DNA of 22,993 nt from a virus. Taxonomy: Duplodnaviria > Heunggongvirae > Uroviricota > Caudoviricetes. The notes below the pieces were generated by a model that saw only the letters and a program-made list of their open reading frames with translations, had not been told where the DNA came from and did no database searches. The position numbers were made by a program, and so were the translations under genes. The first letter of the stretch is position 1. The number at the start of each line of letters is the position of its first letter. The DNA lies in the IMG/VR virus record IMGVR_UViG_3300000292_000175; one strand, given 5' to 3'. Below, piece by piece: positions 3,352-20,714 of the stretch.

Positions 3352-3788
3352 CATCCGCATTTACCTGGTATTCCATGATGAGTTCACGCAGCGACTGATA
3401 GAGGAAGGAAAGATGGTTAGTAAAAGCAAGGCGCATTGCCGCCGCATGCTGCAGGCATTGCAACAGACGAGAGCAGGTATTTTTGACCAGTTGGAAAACT
3501 GCCAGCATACTTTGCCCGAGTATATCGCCATCTCATCGGAAACCAGTGCAACTCTTATTCATCGGGTTCCNNNNNNNNNNNNNNNNNNNNNNNNNNNNNN
3601 NNNNNNNNNNNNNNNNNNNNNNNNNNNNNNNNNNNNNNNNNNNNACCAGAGAAAAAGAAGAAATGAACAGTGAGGCGTTGTGTGGCATACAACGCCTTCT
3701 TCCATCATTCCTCGTCAGCCATGACAAAAATATAACCGCTGGCTCTTTCATTTTTCTCCTGCTTCCAGCCCCTCTCTACCTGGAAGCA

Positions 3789-4115
3789 TCAAGGACGTGA
3801 CGGCGTAAAGATAAATTGTCTCTTCACTCCCTGACAGGGGCGATTCTTTTCAAATCGCCATTTCGCCATGGCCTTCACCACTTCATCACGAAACAAATTA
3901 TGAGGCTCTGAGCGGAGAAAAACGATCCGTGTCACAGTCCCATCAGCACCAATATCGAACTTAACCTCAACCAGCCCCTTGATATAATTTGCTGCAGCAT
4001 ATTCCGGATATCGTGGATACACCGTCACTAATTGCCGGGGCTCATCAGCTTTTTGCTGCGAGCATCCCACTGCCAGGACAGATAACAGAAAAAGTAGTAA
4101 AAGGCGTCTTTTCAT
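3789..4115 (-). CDS. Lipoprotein with TonB C-terminal-like domain
   Basis: Start taken at MKRRLLLLFLLSVLAVGC (lipobox LAVGC). C-terminal region YPRYPEYAAANYIKGLVEVKFDIGADGTVTRIVFL...AKWRF fits the TonB_C pattern. Confidence 0.55.
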   Translation of the reverse strand: MKRRLLLLFLLSVLAVGCSQQKADEPRQLVTVYPRYPEYAAANYIKGLVEVKFDIGADGTVTRIVFLRSEPHNLFRDEVVKAMAKWRFEKNRPCQGVKRQFIFTPSRP

Positions 4116-4595
4116 TTTTATTCCTACGGGTCTTATTCTGACAATATATCCTGTGTTCCAGACTGCCACATCACCACATCCTGTGCCATTATCTGACTCA
4201 CATTACATACATCGCATCGGGATACAGTAGTAGCACTTTCTGTAATACAGCTTCCTGTTTCTTCCACCATCGCACCGGGATAAACCCGCGAATCATTAAC
4301 GCGGTAAAAACCCGGTGTGCATCGTTTTTAATTATTCCCGCACACTCACGCAGAAGGAATTCCCCGTCGGGCTACGGTCATGGTTAATGCGGGAATACGG
4401 CGACGATACAGCGCAGCTAAAAGGGTAATGGACGGATAGACCGGTTTATTTCATTCCACAGGATTCTGAGTGTCCCCAACTTCCTCCAATAGTCTGAGCC
4501 CACCTGTGTAGTTTTAATTTTCATCAATCCATTTAACTATCGTTTAATTGTTGTCACATAGGATTCTGCCGTTTTTAACAATGCAGGATAATAAG

Positions 4596-4889
4596 ATGAA
4601 AAAAATGTTGTTTTCTGCCGCTCTGGCAATGCTTATTACAGGATGTGCTCAACAGACGTTTACTGTTGGAAACAAACCTACAGCAGTAACACCAAAGGAA
4701 ACCATCACCCATCATTTCTTCGTTTCGGGAATTGGGCAGAAGAAAACTGTCGATGCAGCAAAAATTTGTGGTGGTGCAGAAAATGTTGTTAAAACAGAAA
4801 CCCAGCAAACATTCGTAAATGGATTGCTCGGTTTTATTACTTTAGGCATTTATACTCCGCTGGAAGCGCGTGTGTATTGCTCACAATAA
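4596..4889 (+). CDS. bor: Bor lipoprotein (serum-resistance lipoprotein)
   Basis: 97-aa product MKKMLFSAALAMLITGCAQQTFTV...LEARVYCSQ, near-identical to lambda Bor as recalled. Opposite strand to the lysis genes, as in lambda. Confidence 0.92.
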   Translation: MKKMLFSAALAMLITGCAQQTFTVGNKPTAVTPKETITHHFFVSGIGQKKTVDAAKICGGAENVVKTETQQTFVNGLLGFITLGIYTPLEARVYCSQ

Positions 4890-6253: not shown

Positions 6254-6679
6254 AAGCTGTGTGACGAAGTAACCACTCTTAACAGCATAACCAATTTTTT
6301 ACGTACGTAAACTACTAAATGATATTTGTGAGAATGCCACCGAGTGTTCAAAACACCACCACAAATGCATAAGAAAACTTCAACAAATAACCAGTTAATA
6401 ATTTCCGATGTTATTTTTAGTTTGTTTAAATTAAGCTAAAGAATTATAGAGCACTTATAAATAAGTGCCATTAATATAAATTAGCTAATAGATTTATTTT
6501 TGTTCAGACAAGAGCCATGAATAGGATTAGATAGAAAAGGTTCAGATAAAAATAGAGATCTACTTCACAAATTAAATGAGAAACTAAAACTTACATCTTG
6601 AAATAATCACATTGATTAGATGAATATTTATCGCGCAGTGACATCATTTTTTAATAATAGTTCAAAAAAAGGGCGTACA

Positions 6680-7762
6680 ATGAAAAAATTAACAGTGGCA
6701 ATTTCTGCTGTAGCTGCATCAGTACTGATGGCGATGTCTGCTCAGGCAGCTGAAATTTATAATAAAGACAGTAACAAGCTGGATCTATACGGGAAAGTTA
6801 ATGCCAAGCACTACTTCTCCTCTAATGATGCAGATGATGGTGATACTACTTATGCCCGTCTTGGCTTCAAAGGTGAAACCCAAATCAACGATCAACTGAC
6901 TGGTTTCGGTCAGTGGGAATATGAATTCAAAGGCAACCGTGCTGAATCTCAAGGTTCTTCCAAAGACAAAACCCGTCTTGCATTTGCAGGCCTGAAATTT
7001 GGTGATTACGGCTCAATCGATTACGGCCGTAACTACGGTGTAGCATACGACATCGGTGCGTGGACTGACGTTCTGCCAGAATTCGGTGGTGATACCTGGA
7101 CCCAAACAGATGTGTTCATGACTGGTCGCACTACTGGTGTTGCAACTTATCGTAACAACGACTTCTTTGGTCTGGTCGATGGCCTGAACTTTGCTGCTCA
7201 GTATCAGGGTAAAAATGACCGCACTGACGTAACTGAAGCCAATGGTGATGGTTTCGGTTTCTCCACTACTTATGAGTATGAAGGATTCGGCGTGGGTGCA
7301 ACCTATGCTAAATCAGATCGCACTGACGGTCAGGTCGCCTATGGTAAGAGCAAATTCAATGCCTCCGGCAAAAATGCGGAAGTATGGGCTGCAGGCCTGA
7401 AATATGATGCGAACAATATCTATCTGGCTACCACATATTCTGAAACTCAGAATATGACCGTTTTTGGTAATAACCATATTGCAAACAAAGCACAAAACTT
7501 TGAAGCAGTAGCACAATATCAGTTTGACTTCGGTCTGCGTCCATCTGTTGCTTACCTTCAGTCAAAAGGTAAAGACCTTGGTGTTCATGGTGACCGAGAC
7601 TTAGTCAAGTATGTCGATGTCGGTGCTACTTACTACTTTAATAAAAACATGTCCACTTTTGTTGATTACAAAATCAACTTAATTGACGATAGTAAGTTTA
7701 CCAAAACAGCTGGTATTGATACCGACGACATCGTCGCTGTAGGTCTGGTTTATCAGTTCTAA
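6680..7762 (+). CDS. nmpC: Outer-membrane general porin (OmpC/OmpF family), prophage-borne NmpC/Lc type
   Basis: 360 aa with signal peptide [23 protein letters not shown], porin hallmarks ([25 protein letters not shown]-terminal VAVGLVYQF). Opposite to Q and S, matching the DLP12 quuD-nmpC-essD layout. Confidence 0.9.
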
Positions 7763-7950: not shown

Positions 7951-8334
7951 TCAATTAGAATTATTAGCAACGATATCCATATCTAACCGGATATCTAATG
8001 CCATTAACATCCCTTCAATTATGCCCTCAGCCTTCTGTAACCTTTTCCCGATATAACCATCCGAGCAGCAATGCTTACTTGCCAGTGACATGAATGTCAT
8101 ACCACATACATAATAATCTACTAATAAATCGTGTAAATCGCTGTTGTTCTTTTTCAGACGGGCCATGCACCCGCAAATGATCATCGCGTCATCGTCACAA
8201 CATTGCGGGCGAGATTTTACTTTTGAAGGAATTAATCCCTTAAAACCGGCGGCAATGGACGACCAGGTCACATCTTCATGATTATTAGCCGCCCACGCAC
8301 CCCAACGCTCAAGAACCATCTGAATATCACGCAT
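7951..8334 (-). CDS. Q: Late-gene antiterminator Q (phage-21/DLP12 QuuD type)
   Basis: Product from [24 protein letters not shown]... with Cys cluster [15 protein letters not shown], matching E. coli QuuD as recalled. Start taken at the internal Met at 8334. Confidence 0.85.
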
Positions 8335-8419
8335 CAACTTACTCCACAAAAATCAGACCAGAACGCCAATTACAAGCAAAAATCAACAAAACAGTATTAG
8401 TTGATTGTTATCTCTGACT

Positions 8420-8560
8420 TCATACTCCTGTTCCTGTCAGGGTTTTGGCGTAATTCTTCAGTATTCGGTAATCGGTCAAAACAGAACCGAGGAAACGATA
8501 TAAGCGCAGACGCCCCCAGCGGTGGCGAAGAAGTTCTGCCATATTAAACTCAAACATCAT
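8420..8560 (-). CDS. ylcG: YlcG-like small protein
   Basis: 46 codons [46 protein letters not shown] by hand translation. ATG overlaps the rusA stop. Below the ORF-track length cutoff. Confidence 0.55.
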
Positions 8561-8919
8561 TCATTCCCCATTTCGGTGATGGTCAGTTCCAGCCTCCCAC
8601 CTTTGGTAACAGGCATCTTCACAACGCGGTAATCAACGACCTGAGCATCATCCAGCCAGAAACCTGCTTTAGTGAGTGCGTCAAAAGCGGCTTTTTGCAG
8701 ATTATCCAGGTCACGGCGACGGCGATCCGGCATGTGGCACTCAATGCGGATTTTCACAGGCATAGCCAGGCCGATATCCAGCATTGCGTTTTTAATGATT
8801 CGGGCGACGTTATCGCGGTATGCCTGCCCCTCTGCGCTGACGTGCGTGCGCCCGCGATTATGGCGGTAATAGCGATTATTGCTCGGAGGCCAGGGTAATG
8901 TGATGCTGTAGGTATTCAC
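8557..8919 (-). CDS. rusA: Holliday-junction resolvase RusA
   Basis: 120 aa [38 protein letters not shown]...[15 protein letters not shown], matching DLP12 RusA as recalled. Start codon is GTG at 8919. Confidence 0.92.
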
Positions 8920-9044
8920 GCCTTAATAACCCCCTCTTTCAGCCACATAACCTGTGTTCTCGCCATACCTTCCAGCGCGCATTCTTTTGCATATGCAGCA
9001 TCGACTTGCTTGGCATGCCCTTTACCGGCAATCTTCTGTATGCG
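8916..9044 (-). pseudogene. ybcO: Truncated ybcO-like remnant (C-terminal about 42 codons, no start codon)
   Basis: The frame ending in TGA overlapping the rusA GTG reads ..[31 protein letters not shown], resembling the YbcO C-terminus. Upstream in-frame TAG stops and no N-terminal half. The ORF-track 64-aa ORF 8939-9133 is in a different frame. Confidence 0.4.
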
Positions 9045-9125: not shown

Positions 9126-9473
9126 CTAAGCATTATTGGCCTCCTGCATCAGGAGAAAGACAATCATGGCGGCGCGGAGAGGTCTGGTATCAAATATTGG
9201 GCTTACGCCTTTTGCATCCACACACCATTCAGTTAACTGGTCTAAGATAGAAATCCTGTATTTCTCAATAATCGGCCATGAAGCGCTCGGATCATTGCAG
9301 TAGTCAGGCAAATGATTTAATGGCTCAAAAGTTGTATCAGCATTTCCGTAATACCATTTGTTGGTGTTATTCCCTGATGTTTCCGGTTTACTTGCCCAAA
9401 GGCCTTTAAAAATTATGTCTCCTACCATTCTGTTAATTTCAAAATCACTTAACTGTGAATAATCCATTGTCAT
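9126..9473 (-). CDS. Hypothetical nin-region protein
   Basis: 115 aa from [31 protein letters not shown]...; ATG overlaps the ninE stop. Family not recognised with confidence. Confidence 0.5.
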
Positions 9474-9646
9474 TTCCTCGCACGATATCTTAGCCACCGG
9501 ATATCCCACAGGTGGGCTGTGTAATTGAAGGTTTTTACGTCAGATTCTTTTGGGATTAGCTTGCGTTTATTTCTGGAGCGTTTCGTTGGAAGGTATTTGC
9601 AGTTTTCGCAGATTATGTCGGTGATGCTTCGTCGCTGTCGTCTCAT
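9470..9646 (-). CDS. ninE: NinE
   Basis: 58 aa [58 protein letters not shown], near-identical to lambda NinE as recalled. ATG overlaps the methyltransferase stop. Confidence 0.85.
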
Positions 9647-10170
9647 GCAGCCCTCCTGACGCCCTGCCCGATCGCCATCAATGCCGCTTTGGATACGGTA
9701 GTAAACATCCGTCGAGGACTGATGAACGGTCGCCAAATCAGCAGCATGGAGCCTTTGCTGTTTCCCTTCTTCTCCAGCCCTGTCGATGGTTCGATAAAAT
9801 TAATCCGTCCATCAGTGATAATACGAACTTCGTCAACACTCTCCAGAGCCTTGCTGAACCATCCGACAGACATATCCTCTGGCACAAGCATCACTACCGT
9901 CTGTCGCTGTTGTATACACTGCTCAGCGGCTTTTTCCACCCACGGCCTGATATTGCTGTACGGTGGGTTATTCCAGATTGCACCGTGGCTTACCCACTCA
10001 GAATTGAGCGCGTCGTCGTCCTCAGTTAGCCAGTGAGCGCACAGAGCATTTTTGTCGCTCGCTGCCGAATCCAGCCAGAATCCAAACTCAATATCCAGTG
10101 CATCAAAAAGCCAAAGCGGCGTTTGCCAGCAGTCCTTGTCGTGTGCTGGCGTATTTGATTTGATAGTCAT
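9643..10170 (-). CDS. Phage orphan DNA N6-adenine methyltransferase
   Basis: 175 aa from [26 protein letters not shown]... with motif [13 protein letters not shown] overlaps the ninB stop. No adjacent restriction endonuclease ORF. Confidence 0.78.
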
Positions 10171-10607
10171 GCAGCCCGATCTCCCCATCGCGCTTTCCAT
10201 TCGAGAGCCAGTCGCGCTTCGTCTGACCACTTAACGCCACGCTCTGTACCGAATGCCTGTATAAGCTCTAATAGCTCCGCAAATTCGCTTACACGCATCC
10301 TGCTGGTTGACTGGCCTATTACCACAAAGCCATTCCCGGCAAGGTTAGGAACAACATCCTGCTGCTTTAATGCTGCGGTAAACACACACTTCCAGCTTTC
10401 TGCATCCAGCCAGCGACCATGCCATTCAACCTGACGAGAGACGTCACCTAAGCAGGCCCATAGCTTCCTGTTTTGGTCTAAGCTGCGGTTGCGTTCCTGA
10501 ATGGTTACTACGATTGGTTTGGTTGGGTCTGGAAGGATTTGCTGTACTGCGTGAATAGCGTTTTGCTGATGTGCCGGAGATCGAATTTCAAAGGTTAGTT
10601 TTTTCAT
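10167..10607 (-). CDS. ninB: NinB (Orf) recombination mediator
   Basis: 146 aa MKKLTFEIRSPAHQQNAIHAVQQILPDPTKPIVVTIQERNRSLDQNRKLWA..., matching lambda NinB as recalled. Confidence 0.9.
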   Translation of the reverse strand: MKKLTFEIRSPAHQQNAIHAVQQILPDPTKPIVVTIQERNRSLDQNRKLWACLGDVSRQVEWHGRWLDAESWKCVFTAALKQQDVVPNLAGNGFVVIGQSTSRMRVSEFAELLELIQAFGTERGVKWSDEARLALEWKARWGDRAA

Positions 10608-10616
10608 GACTTCCCT

Positions 10617-10655
10617 CTCCCCCAAATAAAAAGGCCTGCGATTACCTGCAGGCCT
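10617..10655 (-). terminator. Intrinsic terminator between ren and ninB (tR2-like)
   Basis: aggcctgc-gattacct-gcaggcct hairpin; on the minus strand it is followed by ttttatttggggg. Confidence 0.55.
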
Positions 10656-11669: not shown

Positions 11670-12643
11670 AAATCCACCCCGTAAATCCAGTCAGTGTTTG
11701 TCAGGTCGAGTTTTGGTTTGCAGGCTGTCACACCTGCCTGTTGCTTGTTACGGTTGATTTCGAGCTGGGTCCACTTGTCGCGGAGTTTGGCCGGGCTCAG
11801 CACGTTACCGGACCAGAAGTTGTCCTGGCATGCCCAGCGGAACAGTACACACATGTCGCGATGGTTACGTCCGTCACGTTCACGCATCAGGCGGATATCG
11901 TTAGCCCACCCTGCAAAATTCGGTTTTCTGGCTGATGGCGCGATGGTCTTCACCATGTCAAACATCCATTCTGCGGCGGTCAGGTCTTCTGCTGTCCCCC
12001 ACTTGCTGCCGCTCTGAATTGCAGCATCCGGTTTCACCACAGAAAGGTCGTTTTCTGGCTGGTCAGAGGATTCGCCAGAATTCTCTGACGAATAATCTTT
12101 TCTTTTTTCTTTTGTAATAGTGTCTTTTGTGTCCCCCTGTTTTGAGGGATAGCAATCCCCCAATTTGAGGGATGTTTTATCCCTCGTTTTAGGGGATTTT
12201 CCCTCGTTTTGAGGGATACACCATTCTGAGATGTTTTTATTTGGTCCAAACATGCCGCCTTGCTGCTTGATAATATTCATTCTGACGAGTTCTAACTTGG
12301 CTTCATTGCACCGTTTGACGGGTAACTTTGTAATCTCGCTAAGTTGAGAATCGGTGATTCTGTCCATTGGTTTATTCCATCCATAGGTTTTACGCAGAAT
12401 GGCAAGCAGCACTTTAAACTGTCGCTTGGTCAGATCTGCGCCTGAATAAGCCTCAAGCAGNNNNNNNNNNNNNNNNNNNNNNNNNNNNNNNNNNNNNNNN
12501 NNNNNNNNNNNNNNNNNNNNNNNNNNNNNNNNNNNNNNNNNNNNNNNNNNNNTGGCGTAACCATCATCGAGATCTGCCACATTACGCTCCTGTTTGGCAA
12601 AGTTACCTCTGCAGAAGTTGAGTATTTTTGCTGTATTTGTCAT
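11666..12643 (-). CDS. O: Replication initiator O (contains ori-lambda); interrupted by N-run 12461-12552
   Basis: MTNTAKILNF...LLEAYSGADLTKRQFKVLLAILRKTYGWNKPMDRITDSQLSEITKLPVKRCNEAK... matches lambda O as recalled. True length unknown because of the N-run. Confidence 0.9.
   Translation of the reverse strand: MTNTAKILNFCRGNFAKQERNVADLDDGYAXXXXXXXXXXXXXXXXXXXXXXXXXXXXXXXLLEAYSGADLTKRQFKVLLAILRKTYGWNKPMDRITDSQLSEITKLPVKRCNEAKLELVRMNIIKQQGGMFGPNKNISEWCIPQNEGKSPKTRDKTSLKLGDCYPSKQGDTKDTITKEKRKDYSSENSGESSDQPENDLSVVKPDAAIQSGSKWGTAEDLTAAEWMFDMVKTIAPSARKPNFAGWANDIRLMRERDGRNHRDMCVLFRWACQDNFWSGNVLSPAKLRDKWTQLEINRNKQQAGVTACKPKLDLTNTDWIYGVDL
12085..12217 (-). repeat. ori: ori-lambda: four about 19-bp iterons (12132-12217) plus adjacent AT-rich region (about 12085-12130) inside O
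   Basis: Four tandem inverted-repeat units tccccctgttttgagggat / atcccccaatttgagggat / atccctcgttttaggggat / tccctcgttttgagggat, followed in the O sense by ttctttttcttttgtaatag. Confidence 0.85.
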
Positions 12644-13329: not shown

Positions 13330-13440
13330 ATGCCCTCCATAGTAAACACGAATAAAAAAATACAATATGTACTTTGCGAATACAAGTAAAAATACACATT
13401 GTGCATGGATGGTTCCAGTACAGAGCGTAATAATAAGGAC
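13330..13440. promoter_or_regulatory. OR operator region with divergent PR (candidate -35 at 13380-13385, -10 at 13357-13362, minus strand) and PRM
   Basis: Intergenic region between divergent cro and cI. Minus strand has TTGTAT, 17 bp, TATTTT. Several TACA/TGTA dyads (tacaatatgta, cacattgtg) are candidate operator half-sites. Confidence 0.55.
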
Positions 13441-14100
13441 ATGAAAATGAAATGGTATGAACTGGCTAGATCCAGAATGAAAGAGCTCGGCATAACTCAA
13501 GAGAAGTTAGCCGAAGAGCTAGGTATGACGCAGGGTGGGATTGGACACTGGTTGCGCGGATCTCGTCATCCATCTCTTAGTGATATTGGTGTGGTGTTTA
13601 AATACCTTGGTATTGATAACATATCATTCAACCACGACGGGACATTTTCACCTGTTGGCGAATACTCATCGGCCCCAGTTAAAAAACAATATGAGTACCC
13701 TGTTTTTTCTCATGTTCAGGCTGGGATGTTCTCTCCAGAACTCAGAACCTTTACCAAAGGCGATGCGGAGAGATTGGTAAGCACAACCAAAAAAGCCAGT
13801 GACTCTGCATTCTGGCTTGAGGTTGAAGGTAACTCAATGACCGCACCAACAGGTTCCAAACCCAGCTTTCCTGACGGGATGTTAATTCTGGTTGACCCTG
13901 AGCAAGCTGTTGAGCCCGGCGATTTCTGCATAGCCAGACTTGGTGGTGATGAATTTACCTTCAAGAAACTGATCAGGGATAGCGGTCAGGTGTTTCTACA
14001 GCCACTAAACCCACAATACCCAATGATCCCATGCAATGAGAGTTGTTCCGTTGTGGGGAAAGTTATCGCCAGCCAATGGCCTGAAGAGACGTTTGGGTGA
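13441..14100 (+). CDS. cI: CI repressor (N-terminal HTH, C-terminal S24 LexA-like autopeptidase domain)
   Basis: [26 protein letters not shown]; C-terminal GNSM (Ser) and FTFKKL (Lys) dyad. Start chosen at ATG 13441 (AAGGA RBS); ATG 13447 is also possible. Not the lambda immunity type. Confidence 0.85.
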
Positions 14101-14139: not shown

Positions 14140-14697
14140 TTGGCAAAAATAGATGATTATCAGCCAAGCCAAGTAGAAGTTGATAAAGTACTTTATTGTA
14201 AAAAAATAGTTAACTTTTCTGGCGTTAAATGGAAACAGAAACCAAGTCGCTCTGATATGTGGCTACAAGCCCATATCATCCCCTTGGATGAGGATTGTAT
14301 ACCTATACAAGGGCTAAAGTTTGAACTGAAATGGAAACCAGATCAGGATTCAGAACCTGATGACCCGATTTCTTACCCTAAAATAAATATTATTGCTTTC
14401 TATCATAACAAGAGGGTTTTCGCGGTAGATACCTATCACTTTGACAAACACACGAATAGTTACAAGGTCGATCATCCGAAGTACCAAGATATCATTTACG
14501 GTGCTCACTACCATGTATACTATGAAGAAGCTGGATACTATAGTGATAGAATAGCGTTTCCAATCGAAGATGACATAAACCCAGATGACCTGGTAGGGTA
14601 TTGGAATTACTTCTGTAAACATCTGAACATAACTTACTCTGGGAGAATACCTTTACCGCTTGAAGATGAGTCGGGGCAAATGGGGTTTGGAATATGA
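14140..14697 (+). CDS. Hypothetical protein, gene 1 of a two-gene cassette in the rexA position
   Basis: 185-aa ORF, apparent TTG start at 14140 (no in-frame ATG nearby), AGGGCGG 7 nt upstream. AT-rich by eye. Acidic and Tyr/His/Trp-rich; no motif recognised. Confidence 0.55.
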   Translation: MAKIDDYQPSQVEVDKVLYCKKIVNFSGVKWKQKPSRSDMWLQAHIIPLDEDCIPIQGLKFELKWKPDQDSEPDDPISYPKINIIAFYHNKRVFAVDTYHFDKHTNSYKVDHPKYQDIIYGAHYHVYYEEAGYYSDRIAFPIEDDINPDDLVGYWNYFCKHLNITYSGRIPLPLEDESGQMGFGI

Positions 14698-15446
14698 TGT
14701 GCTCAACAGTGATCTCACAACTAGGTTTCGAATGCCATCCAATAGGCAAGACCTTGAGAATTATCAGTCCATTCACTTACTGTGATGATGGAGAGCATGT
14801 CGGTGCCTTTATCCGTGAAGTCAATGGTAGGTATTTAGTTAGTGACAGATGCGATGCCTTAATGAATATGGAGGCAAGAGGGATCTCGCTTACCAAAAAA
14901 CGACTTGATGAGATACGACAATTACTGCTTAAAGAAGGCGCAGAACTCAATGCTCGAGGAGAAATCATTGCTTGGGCAACAGAAAAGGATGTCGGTGCGA
15001 TTACATCGAACATAATTAGAGCTGGTATACTCGCATCAACTTTGTCGTTAGACTGGTATCAGCCAGTTCAAGCTGAAAAGTTTGAAAGTATGGTTATTGA
15101 TTATCTATATCACACAGAGCTTAGAGACGCACTTTCTCTTCGTGAAAACGTATATGGCTTGAGTGGACATCAAATTACCGTCCCTGTAACAATAAAAACC
15201 GACATACCTAAATACGTTTTTACATCAAGCGTGAAACACGGAGGAAGCTGGAATAGTGCTTACTCATTGCTTGGGAAACTAATTGATCTTAAAGCTTCAA
15301 GTGAGGAGTATAACAACAGATTTGTTGTTATAGACAGCGAAGCAATTGGTGATCAAATGCAACAACTCTCCTTACTCTTCCATGAATCAAGCCAAGTTCT
15401 ACCATTCTCCAAAAGAGAGACTTGGGTTAAGAGACTTGCAGCATAA
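14694..15446 (+). CDS. Hypothetical protein, gene 2 of a two-gene cassette in the rexB position
   Basis: 250-aa ORF; ATG overlaps the gene-1 stop (ATGA); GGGG RBS. AT-rich by eye; no Walker or nuclease motif recognised. Confidence 0.6.
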   Translation: MMCSTVISQLGFECHPIGKTLRIISPFTYCDDGEHVGAFIREVNGRYLVSDRCDALMNMEARGISLTKKRLDEIRQLLLKEGAELNARGEIIAWATEKDVGAITSNIIRAGILASTLSLDWYQPVQAEKFESMVIDYLYHTELRDALSLRENVYGLSGHQITVPVTIKTDIPKYVFTSSVKHGGSWNSAYSLLGKLIDLKASSEEYNNRFVVIDSEAIGDQMQQLSLLFHESSQVLPFSKRETWVKRLAA

Positions 15447-15784: not shown

Positions 15785-15882
15785 GATCACCCAACCACAT
15801 AAGCTGTGGGATGCAATGCCGAAGCAACCGTCTCAGGAGGAGCTTCGAGATTGCATCGCCAAAGTTTATTCGGGAGGAATCC

Positions 15883-16155
15883 ATGTCCAGAAAAACAGAA
15901 TTTAAAGGCACCGCAGCTTCTCGCCGTAGAGCTCGTCGCGCAAATCTGCAAAGTCAGGAGGCGATCAGCTCCGACAAGCTACACAGGCCAACCCCTTCAC
16001 GAGTGGTCTTGCAATGCAAGCTCAAACCAGCAATGAGAGCAGAAGTGATAACTCTGACAACGTTGACCAGAAAATATGAAGGTTCAACTTGTCTTCCGAA
16101 CGTAGCTCTTTACGCGGCAGGCTACCGGAAATCAAAACAACTGACGGCGAGATGA
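15883..16155 (+). CDS. N: N-like antiterminator (arginine-rich motif)
   Basis: 90 aa MSRKTEFKGTAASRRRARRANLQSQE...; GGGAGG RBS before ATG 15883; first gene after nutL. Not lambda N. Confidence 0.7.
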   Translation: MSRKTEFKGTAASRRRARRANLQSQEAISSDKLHRPTPSRVVLQCKLKPAMRAEVITLTTLTRKYEGSTCLPNVALYAAGYRKSKQLTAR

Positions 16156-16171
16156 TAAATTCATTTGCTAA

Positions 16172-16726
16172 TTACTTGTTTTTGCCATGCTTATCCTGAG
16201 CGATAAGTTCATCCATAAGGCTGTCTGCCTTCCCGGCAAACCTAATGTAGCACTCATGTCTATAGCTTTCAGGGATAACGAAACGGTCGGTATCAGGATA
16301 TCCAACAGCAGGAGGCCTTCGAACGAGGAGTCCTTTTTTGAGCAATGAAATTGATTCATGAGCGCCCTTTTCCGTTTGTAGCTGGTTATTAGCGGCTACA
16401 GCGAATGCCAAATACGCTCTTTCTCCAAGAGTTAACGAATCAAACAAATCTTGCACATATTTTTCTTCTTTAGATTTGCGCTTCTGAGCAGCGAATACCT
16501 CAATTCTTTCAGTCACAGCGTGATAAGCGGAATTAACAACGCCGTTAAGCACATAGCTAACGCAAAACAACAGGATGTAATACATCCAGTAATGAGGAAG
16601 GATTTCTGGATTATGCAGGTTTATCCATTCTTTTACGCTTACCGGCATAACAATAATCAATATGATCAGGATGATTAGCATATGAATCAACTGTTTAAGT
16701 GTCATTCCTTGCAGGAAAAAATGCAT
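16172..16726 (-). CDS. sieB: Superinfection exclusion protein B (SieB)-like membrane protein
   Basis: Convergent with N, between N and ral as lambda sieB. N-terminal TM segments LIHMLIILIILIIVMPV and YWMYYILLFCVSYVL. Start uncertain (Mets at 16753, 16726, 16705). Confidence 0.55.
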   Translation of the reverse strand: MHFFLQGMTLKQLIHMLIILIILIIVMPVSVKEWINLHNPEILPHYWMYYILLFCVSYVLNGVVNSAYHAVTERIEVFAAQKRKSKEEKYVQDLFDSLTLGERAYLAFAVAANNQLQTEKGAHESISLLKKGLLVRRPPAVGYPDTDRFVIPESYRHECYIRFAGKADSLMDELIAQDKHGKNK

Positions 16727-16896
16727 TAGTTCCTGCCACCATGAGTTGTTCATCGGCGTTTCTCTTTTGCTCTCTGTAGGGGTGAATAGAGTTTATCCGA
16801 TTTCTCGTTGTAGGGGTACACGAGAACCACCGAGCCTGATGTGGTTAAAAGACAGGCACAATCTTTACTACCGCAATCCACTATTTAAGGTGATAT

Positions 16897-16983
16897 ATGG
16901 AAGAAGAATTTGAAGAGTTCGAAGAGCATCCTCAAGATGTGATGGAACAATACCAGGACTATCCGTATGACTACGACTATTGA
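16897..16983 (+). CDS. Small acidic ORF overlapping the ral start (lambda orf28-like position)
   Basis: 28 codons MEEEFEEFEEHPQDVMEQYQDYPYDYDY by hand translation; overlaps ral by 17 nt. Confidence 0.3.
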   Translation: MEEEFEEFEEHPQDVMEQYQDYPYDYDY

Positions 16984-17167
16984 TACAAATCAATGGTGTG
17001 GACAATTCAAACGATGCAATGGATGCAAGCTGCAATCGGAATGCATGGTTAAGCCTGAAGAAATGTTTCCTGTAATGGAGGATGGGAAATATGTCGATAA
17101 ATGGGCAATACGAACGACGGCAATGATTGCCAGAGAACTTGGTAAACAGAACAACAAAGCTGCCTGA
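16967..17167 (+). CDS. ral: Ral restriction-alleviation protein
   Basis: 66 aa MTTTIDTNQWCGQFKRCNGCKLQSECMVKPEEMFPVMEDGKYVDKWAIRTTAMIARELGKQNNKAA, near-identical to lambda Ral as recalled. Confidence 0.9.
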   Translation: MTTTIDTNQWCGQFKRCNGCKLQSECMVKPEEMFPVMEDGKYVDKWAIRTTAMIARELGKQNNKAA

Positions 17168-19907: not shown

Positions 19908-20164
19908 CCCATCCTCACGATAATATCCGGGTAGGCGCGATCACTTTCGTCTACTCCGTNNNNNNNNNNNNNNNNNNNNNNNNNNNNNNNNNNNNNNNNN
20001 NNNNNNNNNNNNNNNNNNNNNNNNNNNNNNNNNNNNNNNNAAAGCGAGGCTGGGTATTTCACGGTCTTTCTGTTATCCGAAATCCGCTGAAAGCCCAGCG
20101 GCTGGCTGAGGAGATAAATAATAAACGGGGGGCGGTATGCACAAAGCATCTCCTGTTGAGTTAA
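19898..20164 (+). CDS. Lambda orf60a-like small protein, interrupted by N-run 19960-20040
   Basis: [20 protein letters not shown]...[40 protein letters not shown]; true length unknown. Confidence 0.5.
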
Positions 20165-20328
20165 GAACGAGTATTGATTTGGCACATAGCCTTGCTCAAA
20201 TTGGAGTCAGGTTTGTGCCAATACCAGCAGAAACAGACGAAGAATTTCATACGTTAGCCACATCCCTTTCACAAAAGCTGGAAATGATGGTGGCGAAAGC
20301 AGAAGCAGATGAGAGAGACCAGGTATGA
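20137..20328 (+). CDS. Lambda orf63-like small protein
   Basis: 63 aa [63 protein letters not shown]. Confidence 0.6.
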   Translation: MHKASPVELRTSIDLAHSLAQIGVRFVPIPAETDEEFHTLATSLSQKLEMMVAKAEADERDQV

Positions 20329-20714
20329 CAACCACTGAATGCATTTTTCTGGCAGCGGGCTTCATATTCTGTGTGCTTATGCTTGCCGACATGGGGCTTG
20401 TTCAGTGACACCTCAGCAAGAAAACGCCCTTCGCAGCATTGCCCGTCAGGCTAATTCTGAAATCAAAAAAGTCAGACAGCAGTTTCCAAAAACGTCAATG
20501 ACATTTGCCGTAGCGTACTGAAGAAGCACCGCGAAACGGTAACGCTGAAGGGATTCACACCGACTCATTTAAGCCTGGCAATCGGCATGTTAAACGGCGT
20601 CTTTAAGGAACGATGAACATGAAAAGCAAAATTATCAGGGAGCTACAGGCTCCTTTTTTATTGTTCGCATTCACCCTCAAGCGTATTAACCAACAGTTCA
20701 GGGATTAATGAAAG

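Follow-up and report, generated by a model that had tools for sequence, protein, structure and literature searches.

The Dam protein of phage T1 is reportedly specific for GATC (work attributed to Auer and Schweiger and to Scherzer et al., 1987). Both this protein (YP_003925.1) and the Dam of Staphylococcus phage 80 are members of Pfam family PF05869, and the latter—141 aa in length, with an N64-P65-P66-Y67 motif and a C-terminal Q141—is an exact fit to the published description of PamA from the mosaic phi11 prophage of S. aureus. Since PamA, too, is directed at GATC, this specificity recurs among diverged PF05869 members. PamA renders S. aureus DNA DpnI-sensitive and, via its methylase activity, raises fnbA expression and abscess size (preprint 10.1101/2024.04.17.589803). 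As this case illustrates, PF05869 relatives are able to rewire host virulence on entering hosts devoid of Dam. For the Shiga toxin phage VT2-Sakai, REBASE lists the enzyme M.EcoVT2Dam, which is GATC-specific according to PMC6602927, PMC7556043, and PMC7139368, all of which cite Radlinska & Bujnicki 2001; PMC7139368 further notes that cellular Dam and this enzyme are not homologous. Phage Phi24B carries a 528-bp 'dam' gene (CM2), and its product and that of VT2-Sakai are reported to be 100% identical (PMC3342100). That 'GATC Dam' annotations can mislead is exemplified by gp5 of Stx phages, which showed no activity on DNA in vitro and turned out to methylate 16S rRNA together with a partner, PNB-2 (PMC10810198).

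How does the present locus compare? The window, that is, the whole stretch of 22,993 nucleotides analyzed here, matches a lambdoid prophage carried by E. coli SCU-123 over its entire length, with 99.9% identity. At 9643–10170 on the minus strand, it contains the coding sequence of an orphan phage N6-adenine DNA methyltransferase (175 codons plus stop) that is an allele of M.EcoVT2Dam. Its product matches VT2-Sakai orf32 (NP_050531.1) at 174 of 175 residues (99.4%), the one difference being D51 here versus A51 there in a column that varies across a 47-sequence family alignment, and it departs from the HK97 protein NP_037744.1 at three residues (98% identity). The full VT2-Sakai annotation holds no second methyltransferase. 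We also considered an unannotated 299-aa protein of that phage, orf4, as the true M.EcoVT2Dam, but it is a DUF551 protein and was rejected. As the sole methyltransferase on VT2-Sakai, orf32 must therefore be the enzyme to which the REBASE name refers, and the D51 allele would be expected to share its GATC specificity.

The nin-region methyltransferase is thus no novelty, but an already known, routinely annotated, and ordinary prophage gene. Of 5426 complete E. coli genomes, 1566 (~29%) carry the 528-bp gene at a DNA identity of at least 95%. Nissle 1917, ATCC 11775, NU14, and other E. coli strains match its DNA without a difference (100%), and RefSeq labels it 'phage N-6-adenine-methyltransferase' throughout. 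The isolated phages ev207, ev017, and PhiR57_1 likewise match the 1.3-kb stretch from ninB through ninE at 100% identity, and tblastn retrieved relatives of the protein in 1906 phage records.

The initial annotation had described a 175-aa protein with an NPPY motif lying between ninB and ninE and joined to both by ATGA stop/start overlaps; the strand, which is minus, was absent from it. The reading frame bears this description out. Translation runs from an ATG at 10170 to a TGA at 9645–9643, the catalytic motif IV residues N68-P69-P70-Y71 are specified by the codons AAC CCA CCG TAC (9958–9969, minus), and the neighbors are ninB (10167–10607, minus; Orf recombination mediator; PF05772, E 1.3e-54) and ninE (9470–9646, minus; PF05322, E 1.8e-41), annotated by RefSeq in the SCU-123 region as 'recombination protein NinB' and 'NinE family protein'. 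Read from the minus strand, the ninB/methyltransferase junction is GGGCTGC-ATGA-CTATC, with the TGA stop of ninB sharing bases with the methyltransferase ATG (10170–10167), and the methyltransferase/ninE junction is GGGCTGC-ATGA-GACGA, with the methyltransferase TGA sharing bases with the ninE ATG (9646–9643). A sequence resembling a Shine-Dalgarno element, GGGGAG (10181–10186, minus), is situated within the ninB coding sequence, 10 nt ahead of the start codon of the methyltransferase, and may serve as its ribosome binding site; AGGAGG precedes the ninE ATG by 5 nt. Together with the overlaps, these elements fit translational coupling of ninB, the methyltransferase, and ninE, as judged from sequence.

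A mechanical list of open reading frames additionally offers a longer, GTG-started version of the gene (9643–10230, 195 aa). Three observations nonetheless support the ATG at 10170 as the start: matches to the profiles of Pfam and TIGRFAM set in at residues 2–4, the RefSeq coding sequence has 528 bp (WP_000153286.1), and full-length homologs mostly measure 175–183 aa. A GATC site at 10178–10181 (within GGAGATCGG, minus strand) overlaps the Shine-Dalgarno-like sequence ahead of this start. At the corresponding place, lambda reads GGAGACAGG, without GATC, and the overlap is probably a coincidence.

The call of an orphan N6-adenine methyltransferase in the initial annotation is well supported. 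The Pfam Dam-family search proposed there returns PF05869 ('Dam') with 219.1 bits (cut-off 28.1; E 3.7e-65), covering profile positions 1–167 of 169, and the TIGRFAM equivalog 'phage N-6-adenine-methyltransferase' (TIGR01712) is matched from position 1 to 165 of 165 with 265.6 bits (cut-off 97.05; E 1.2e-79), scores well outside anything that chance would produce. The protein further matches PHROG 111, and its best PADLOC match is 'oMTase', an orphan methyltransferase model (E 1.6e-19). Across an alignment of 47 homologs with 59–86% identity, D34, N68, P69, P70, and Y71 are invariant, as are ~40 further positions. The NPPY motif aligns with that of T1 Dam. Where SAM-binding motif I would be expected after the first beta-strand, a canonical FxGxG loop is missing; an invariant L33-D34-x-A36, typical of the family, follows the strand formed by residues 31–36 and aligns with LDAAAS of T1 Dam and LDPCS of phage 80 Dam.

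A confident AlphaFold2 model built from the 47-homolog alignment (pLDDT 89.7, pTM 0.87) has the Rossmann fold of class-I SAM-dependent methyltransferases, so that the SAM-binding fold whose absence would have spoken against the initial assignment is indeed predicted; confidence is lower for a loop at residues 120–140. The top structural neighbor of this model is the mRNA cap m6Am methyltransferase CAPAM/PCIF1. Solved N6-adenine methyltransferases with NPPY or NPPF come close (M.TaqI, score 9.7; M.BseCI, 9.3; MmeI, 9.1; CamA, 8.7; type I HsdM, ~8), and E. coli Dam (8.0), T4 Dam (7.3), and DpnM (7.1) score lower. Searches of PDB sequences with either the single sequence or a 47-sequence profile gave spurious matches only (E above 0.2), meaning that PF05869, a minimal GATC methyltransferase family that lacks a target-recognition domain, is without an experimental structure in the copy searched. 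In the Pfam search of the protein, neither PF02086 nor PF01555 was matched. We considered kinship with Hia5/Hin1523 and M.EcoGII as well and rejected it, PF05869 being the only family found by Pfam; according to the respective papers, M.EcoGII belongs to class beta and Hia5 is a relative of Dam/DpnM with DPPY and FxGxG (~280 aa).

Could the physiological substrate be something other than double-stranded GATC—a different motif in DNA, RNA, or the single-stranded intermediates of replication, perhaps with the help of a partner protein? The RNA cap enzyme at the head of the structural neighbors would be in line with this and is a point against the GATC reading, as would be the missing separate target-recognition domain, the tight coupling of the gene to small neighbors such as NinE, and the fate of gp5, which carried a GATC Dam annotation and turned out to modify 16S rRNA together with a partner subunit. 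However, gp5 is a different gene from a different family, and the evidence from PF05869 itself consistently points to GATC, which makes an alternative physiological specificity highly improbable. In keeping with this family difference, the protein has no match to the MT-A70 Pfam domain, and its motif is NPPY rather than DPPW. We also examined whether the 'prophage-encoded rRNA methyltransferase' reported in NAR in 2023 might be the nin-region enzyme and rejected this, since that report concerns gp5, an MT-A70/DPPW protein encoded near int; the nin-region enzyme goes unmentioned in PMC10810198. It is similarly improbable, though slightly less so, that the methyltransferase recognizes its target in an unprecedented manner, such as through the loop at residues 120–140 or as a dimer, or else acts on RNA or single-stranded replication intermediates. 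We hold a SAM-dependent GATC N6-adenine methyltransferase to be the appropriate description and place high confidence in this enzymatic identity; our confidence in any particular biological role is much lower.

In SCU-123, the genes on the methyltransferase strand are ordered cro, cII, O, P, ren, ninB, methyltransferase, ninE, ninX, rusA, ylcG, and Q. As the initial annotation had stated, the neighborhood harbors no restriction endonuclease to partner with: none is found among the 45 annotated RefSeq features of the SCU-123 region, none among the less obvious open reading frames of the window when these were scanned with Pfam and PADLOC, and none at the loci of Yersinia and Providencia homologs. 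In lambda, ninC and ninD occupy the slot of the methyltransferase. The string GGGCTGC-ATGA is present at both ends of the gene (10167–10177 and, as a second copy, 9643–9653, both minus), and sequence comparison locates it also at the ninB/ninC boundary of lambda and at the ninB/methyltransferase boundaries of VT2-Sakai and HK97; VT2-Sakai retains it although the 3′ end of its ninB differs. Because the same 11 nt terminate both reading frames, NinB and the methyltransferase both finish with -R-A-A-stop. The ninC/ninD junction of lambda has a variant, GAAGCTGC-ATGA (positions 1071–1085 and 1940–1954 of the lambda locus, L006, were compared). On this comparison, GGGCTGC-ATGA looks like a common module-boundary linker that would allow for the exchange of cassettes—the methyltransferase here, ninC plus ninD in lambda—and the boundary strings would fit the known mosaic, cassette-like makeup of nin regions.

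NinB as an obligate partner of the methyltransferase was rejected, since 65–68%-identical homologs from Yersinia and Providencia reside in other early operons without ninB or ninE. The 68%-identical Yersinia homolog belongs to an early-left operon, with genes of the exo region on one side and xis/int on the other, and the 66%-identical Providencia homolog lies between the replication genes and Q; both retain overlaps of 1–4 nt with the adjoining genes. In Providencia prophages with the 66%-identical homolog (L011–L013), a second methyltransferase of the PF01555 (N6_N4_Mtase) family is encoded just after Q (8200–8534), and these prophages also have a Lar restriction-alleviation gene, such that several anti-restriction functions are stacked. 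Public gene calls include chimeras of the methyltransferase with NinE, NinB, RusA, CII, holin, and Q domains (P0002, P0005, P0011, P0016, P0024, P0040, P0090, and P0113), which are probably due either to read-through at the ATGA overlaps or to deletions in prophages undergoing decay.

Might the gene be an inactive passenger, a decaying remnant in a defective prophage? Many of its database relatives are truncated or fused to fragments of NinE, NinB, RusA, Q, or holin, and the surrounding prophage has lesions of its own, with a truncated DUF1364 gene in the nin region and a frameshifted zapA-like gene elsewhere. The gene itself argues otherwise: its reading frame is full-length and matches the family profile from end to end, the catalytic and core residues are invariant in all 47 homologs despite identities as low as 59%, viable isolated phages have the same DNA (ev207, ev017) or almost the same (HK97), and it is intact in the more than 1,500 E. 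coli genomes mentioned above. Given a sequence this intact and conserved, a dead remnant is extremely unlikely.

When would it be expressed? Ren, ninB, the methyltransferase, ninE, ninX, rusA, and Q lie on one strand, and a consensus scan detected a terminator-like hairpin with a T-run in the gap between ren and ninB (10622–10655, minus), at the position of lambda tR2. Its stem of 8 bp, including 6 GC pairs, is followed by TTTTATTTGG. By analogy to lambda biology, this hairpin would act as a tR2-like terminator, and its position places the methyltransferase within the presumed N-dependent delayed-early pR transcript. The gene would consequently be reached by pR transcription only upon N-mediated read-through past the terminator, and its translation would be linked to that of ninB upstream and ninE downstream through the ATGA overlaps. 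If transcription depends on pR and N and translation is coupled in this manner, it follows that the enzyme would act during lytic growth. A search for promoters, internal or upstream, from which the gene might be expressed in the lysogen yielded 7 promoter-like matches, as compared to 8.1 expected from shuffled sequence. The Phi24B ortholog, in turn, showed a significant change in expression on induction, linked by the authors to the lytic cycle (PMC3342100).

These observations bear on an epigenetic role in the lysogen, wherein the prophage methyltransferase would alter host or prophage expression and thereby, for instance, virulence or the frequency of spontaneous induction. PamA, from the same Pfam family, sets a precedent, and a screen for genes with expression in lysogen cultures picked up Phi24B dam (PMC3342100). 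Yet GATC methylation is new information in S. aureus, which has no Dam, while E. coli methylates this site already; the gene sits behind a tR2-like terminator within the cI-repressed pR operon; promoter-like matches are no commoner than in shuffled sequence; and the Phi24B authors themselves ascribe their signal to lytic-cycle-linked expression, that is, to a spontaneously induced sub-population. Moreover, host Dam is reported to be necessary for stable 933W lysogeny in EDL933, even though the CP-933V prophage of this strain has a 99%-identical copy of the gene, which suggests that a prophage copy is no substitute for host Dam in the lysogen. Chiefly because GATC is methylated in E. coli anyway and the gene lies behind tR2 in a repressed operon, we consider a lysogenic role unlikely.

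The same circumstances affect the assay envisaged in the initial annotation, in which a new methylated motif would be sought in the lysogen. Since the expected motif, GATC, is already saturated by host Dam and the gene is probably repressed, this readout would be uninformative, and a missing new motif would therefore not count against methyltransferase activity. For genome scanning more generally, this implies that a new-motif test in lysogens is blind to any phage enzyme that copies the methylation site of its host.

What, then, is the likely role of this enzyme? As the most likely scenario, we favor a delayed-early lytic gene whose product adds to the activity of host Dam while phage DNA replicates. 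We consider the combined reading—a phage-encoded, SAM-dependent GATC N6-adenine methyltransferase that acts in lytic growth and tops up host Dam—very likely correct overall, with much lower confidence in its biological part. Within the single domain, the target adenine would presumably be flipped into the pocket of N68-P69-P70-Y71, and the methyl group would pass from SAM, bound on the Rossmann sheet, to the adenine by the standard route of amino-methyltransferases, no target-recognition domain being involved. With host Dam limiting, fast-replicating phage DNA would most likely become fully GATC-methylated before packaging. Progeny DNA could plausibly then be shielded from those restriction systems of the next host that cut GATC in an m6A-sensitive fashion, and the action of MutH or SeqA on hemimethylated DNA could be avoided. 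Both the restriction to lytic expression and the biological benefit are what we infer from these elements.

Several points weigh against this proposal. The GATC specificity of VT2 Dam is known via citing papers, and the activity of the present allele is a prediction. In Dam+ E. coli, a second GATC methylase is apparently redundant, and the literature contains no published phenotype for a nin-region Dam in a Dam+ host. GATC is mildly under-represented in the window (observed/expected 0.68), but other 4-mer palindromes span a range that includes this ratio, and the sites form no clusters; hence, it carries no signal of selection tied to GATC restriction.

The methyltransferase is not the only gene of this prophage with a bearing on restriction or defense. 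A Ral-family antirestriction protein (16967–17167, plus) and a SieB superinfection exclusion protein (16172–16753, minus) are encoded in the same element, which accordingly possesses a second restriction-related function besides the methyltransferase. Between cI (13399–14100) and N (15811–16155), in the position held by rexA/rexB in lambda, there is a pair of genes on the plus strand (14140–14697 and 14694–15446). The second protein of this pair matches the candidate defense model PDC-M24B of PADLOC (E 4.7e-10) as well as DUF1828, and the first has weak matches, below the Pfam cut-off, to PDC-M24A (E ~5e-4) and DUF6978 (~2e-4). The pair (14140–15446) may constitute a prophage defense system expressed in the lysogen.

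In the late region, cargo of the lysogenic-conversion type is found at 6620–7762 (plus), 4548–4889 (plus), and 3789–4169 (minus); a full OmpC/NmpC-like porin (PF00267, E 2e-151), encoded between Q and the genes for lysis, is accompanied by a serum-survival lipoprotein of the Bor/Iss type and by a small protein that has a TonB C-terminal domain. The truncated DUF1364 gene is located in the gap between ninX and rusA (~8916–9005, minus) and the frameshifted zapA-like gene in the exo–xis region (~20249–20460, plus). Both are marked as such by RefSeq in the SCU-123 prophage, from which their window coordinates were carried over (L005, 8843–8932 and 20176–20387), and both are signs of local decay beside otherwise intact early genes. 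Runs of N interrupt the window at 3571–3644 (74), 12461–12552 (92), and 19960–20040 (81), the second inside the O replication gene, where the iterons of a lambda-type origin are expected. As the window exceeds the SCU-123 region by 229 bases, these runs replace only ~18 bases of SCU-123-like sequence.

Placed among known systems, the gene stands closest to its VT2-Sakai and HK97 counterparts, which share its 528-bp length, its slot between ninB and ninE, and the 4-nt ATGA overlaps. M.EcoVT2Dam is an orphan as well, and the same protein is found in Stx2 phages. In contrast, the phage backbone differs: here it is lambda-like and non-Stx, with O, P, and ren of the lambda type, whereas in VT2-Sakai, P is DnaB-like and ninB has another 3′ end. 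Beyond the nin region, T1 Dam and phage 80 Dam have the W-x-TP, LD-x-(A/C), NPPY, and GN-KGS motifs in common with the present protein, despite an identity of only 33–34% (33% for T1 Dam). With 237 aa, T1 Dam is longer, owing to a 45-residue N-terminal extension and an insertion, and T1 is virulent; PamA, at 141 aa, is shorter and functions in a host without Dam. Like the nin-region gene, both are orphans from an early or replication region.

E. coli Dam, T4 Dam, and DpnM, all alpha-class members of PF02086, share the reported N6 target in GATC, the cofactor, the Rossmann fold, and (D/N)PPY with the present enzyme, but E. coli Dam and M.EcoVT2Dam, while acting at the same site, are not closely related. 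The gamma-class enzymes M.TaqI, M.BseCI, MmeI, CamA, and HsdM, along with CAPAM/PCIF1, are 12–17% identical to it and carry large extra target-recognition or other domains (323–751 residues or more), which the 175-aa protein does not have. Gp5 (M.EcoPA8orf6770P), finally, is reminiscent of it in being a prophage orphan of Stx/lambdoid phages that was annotated as a 'GATC DNA adenine methyltransferase'. Unlike the nin-region enzyme, however, it is an MT-A70 protein with a DPPW motif, is encoded near int, is co-transcribed with gp6, and requires a partner subunit.
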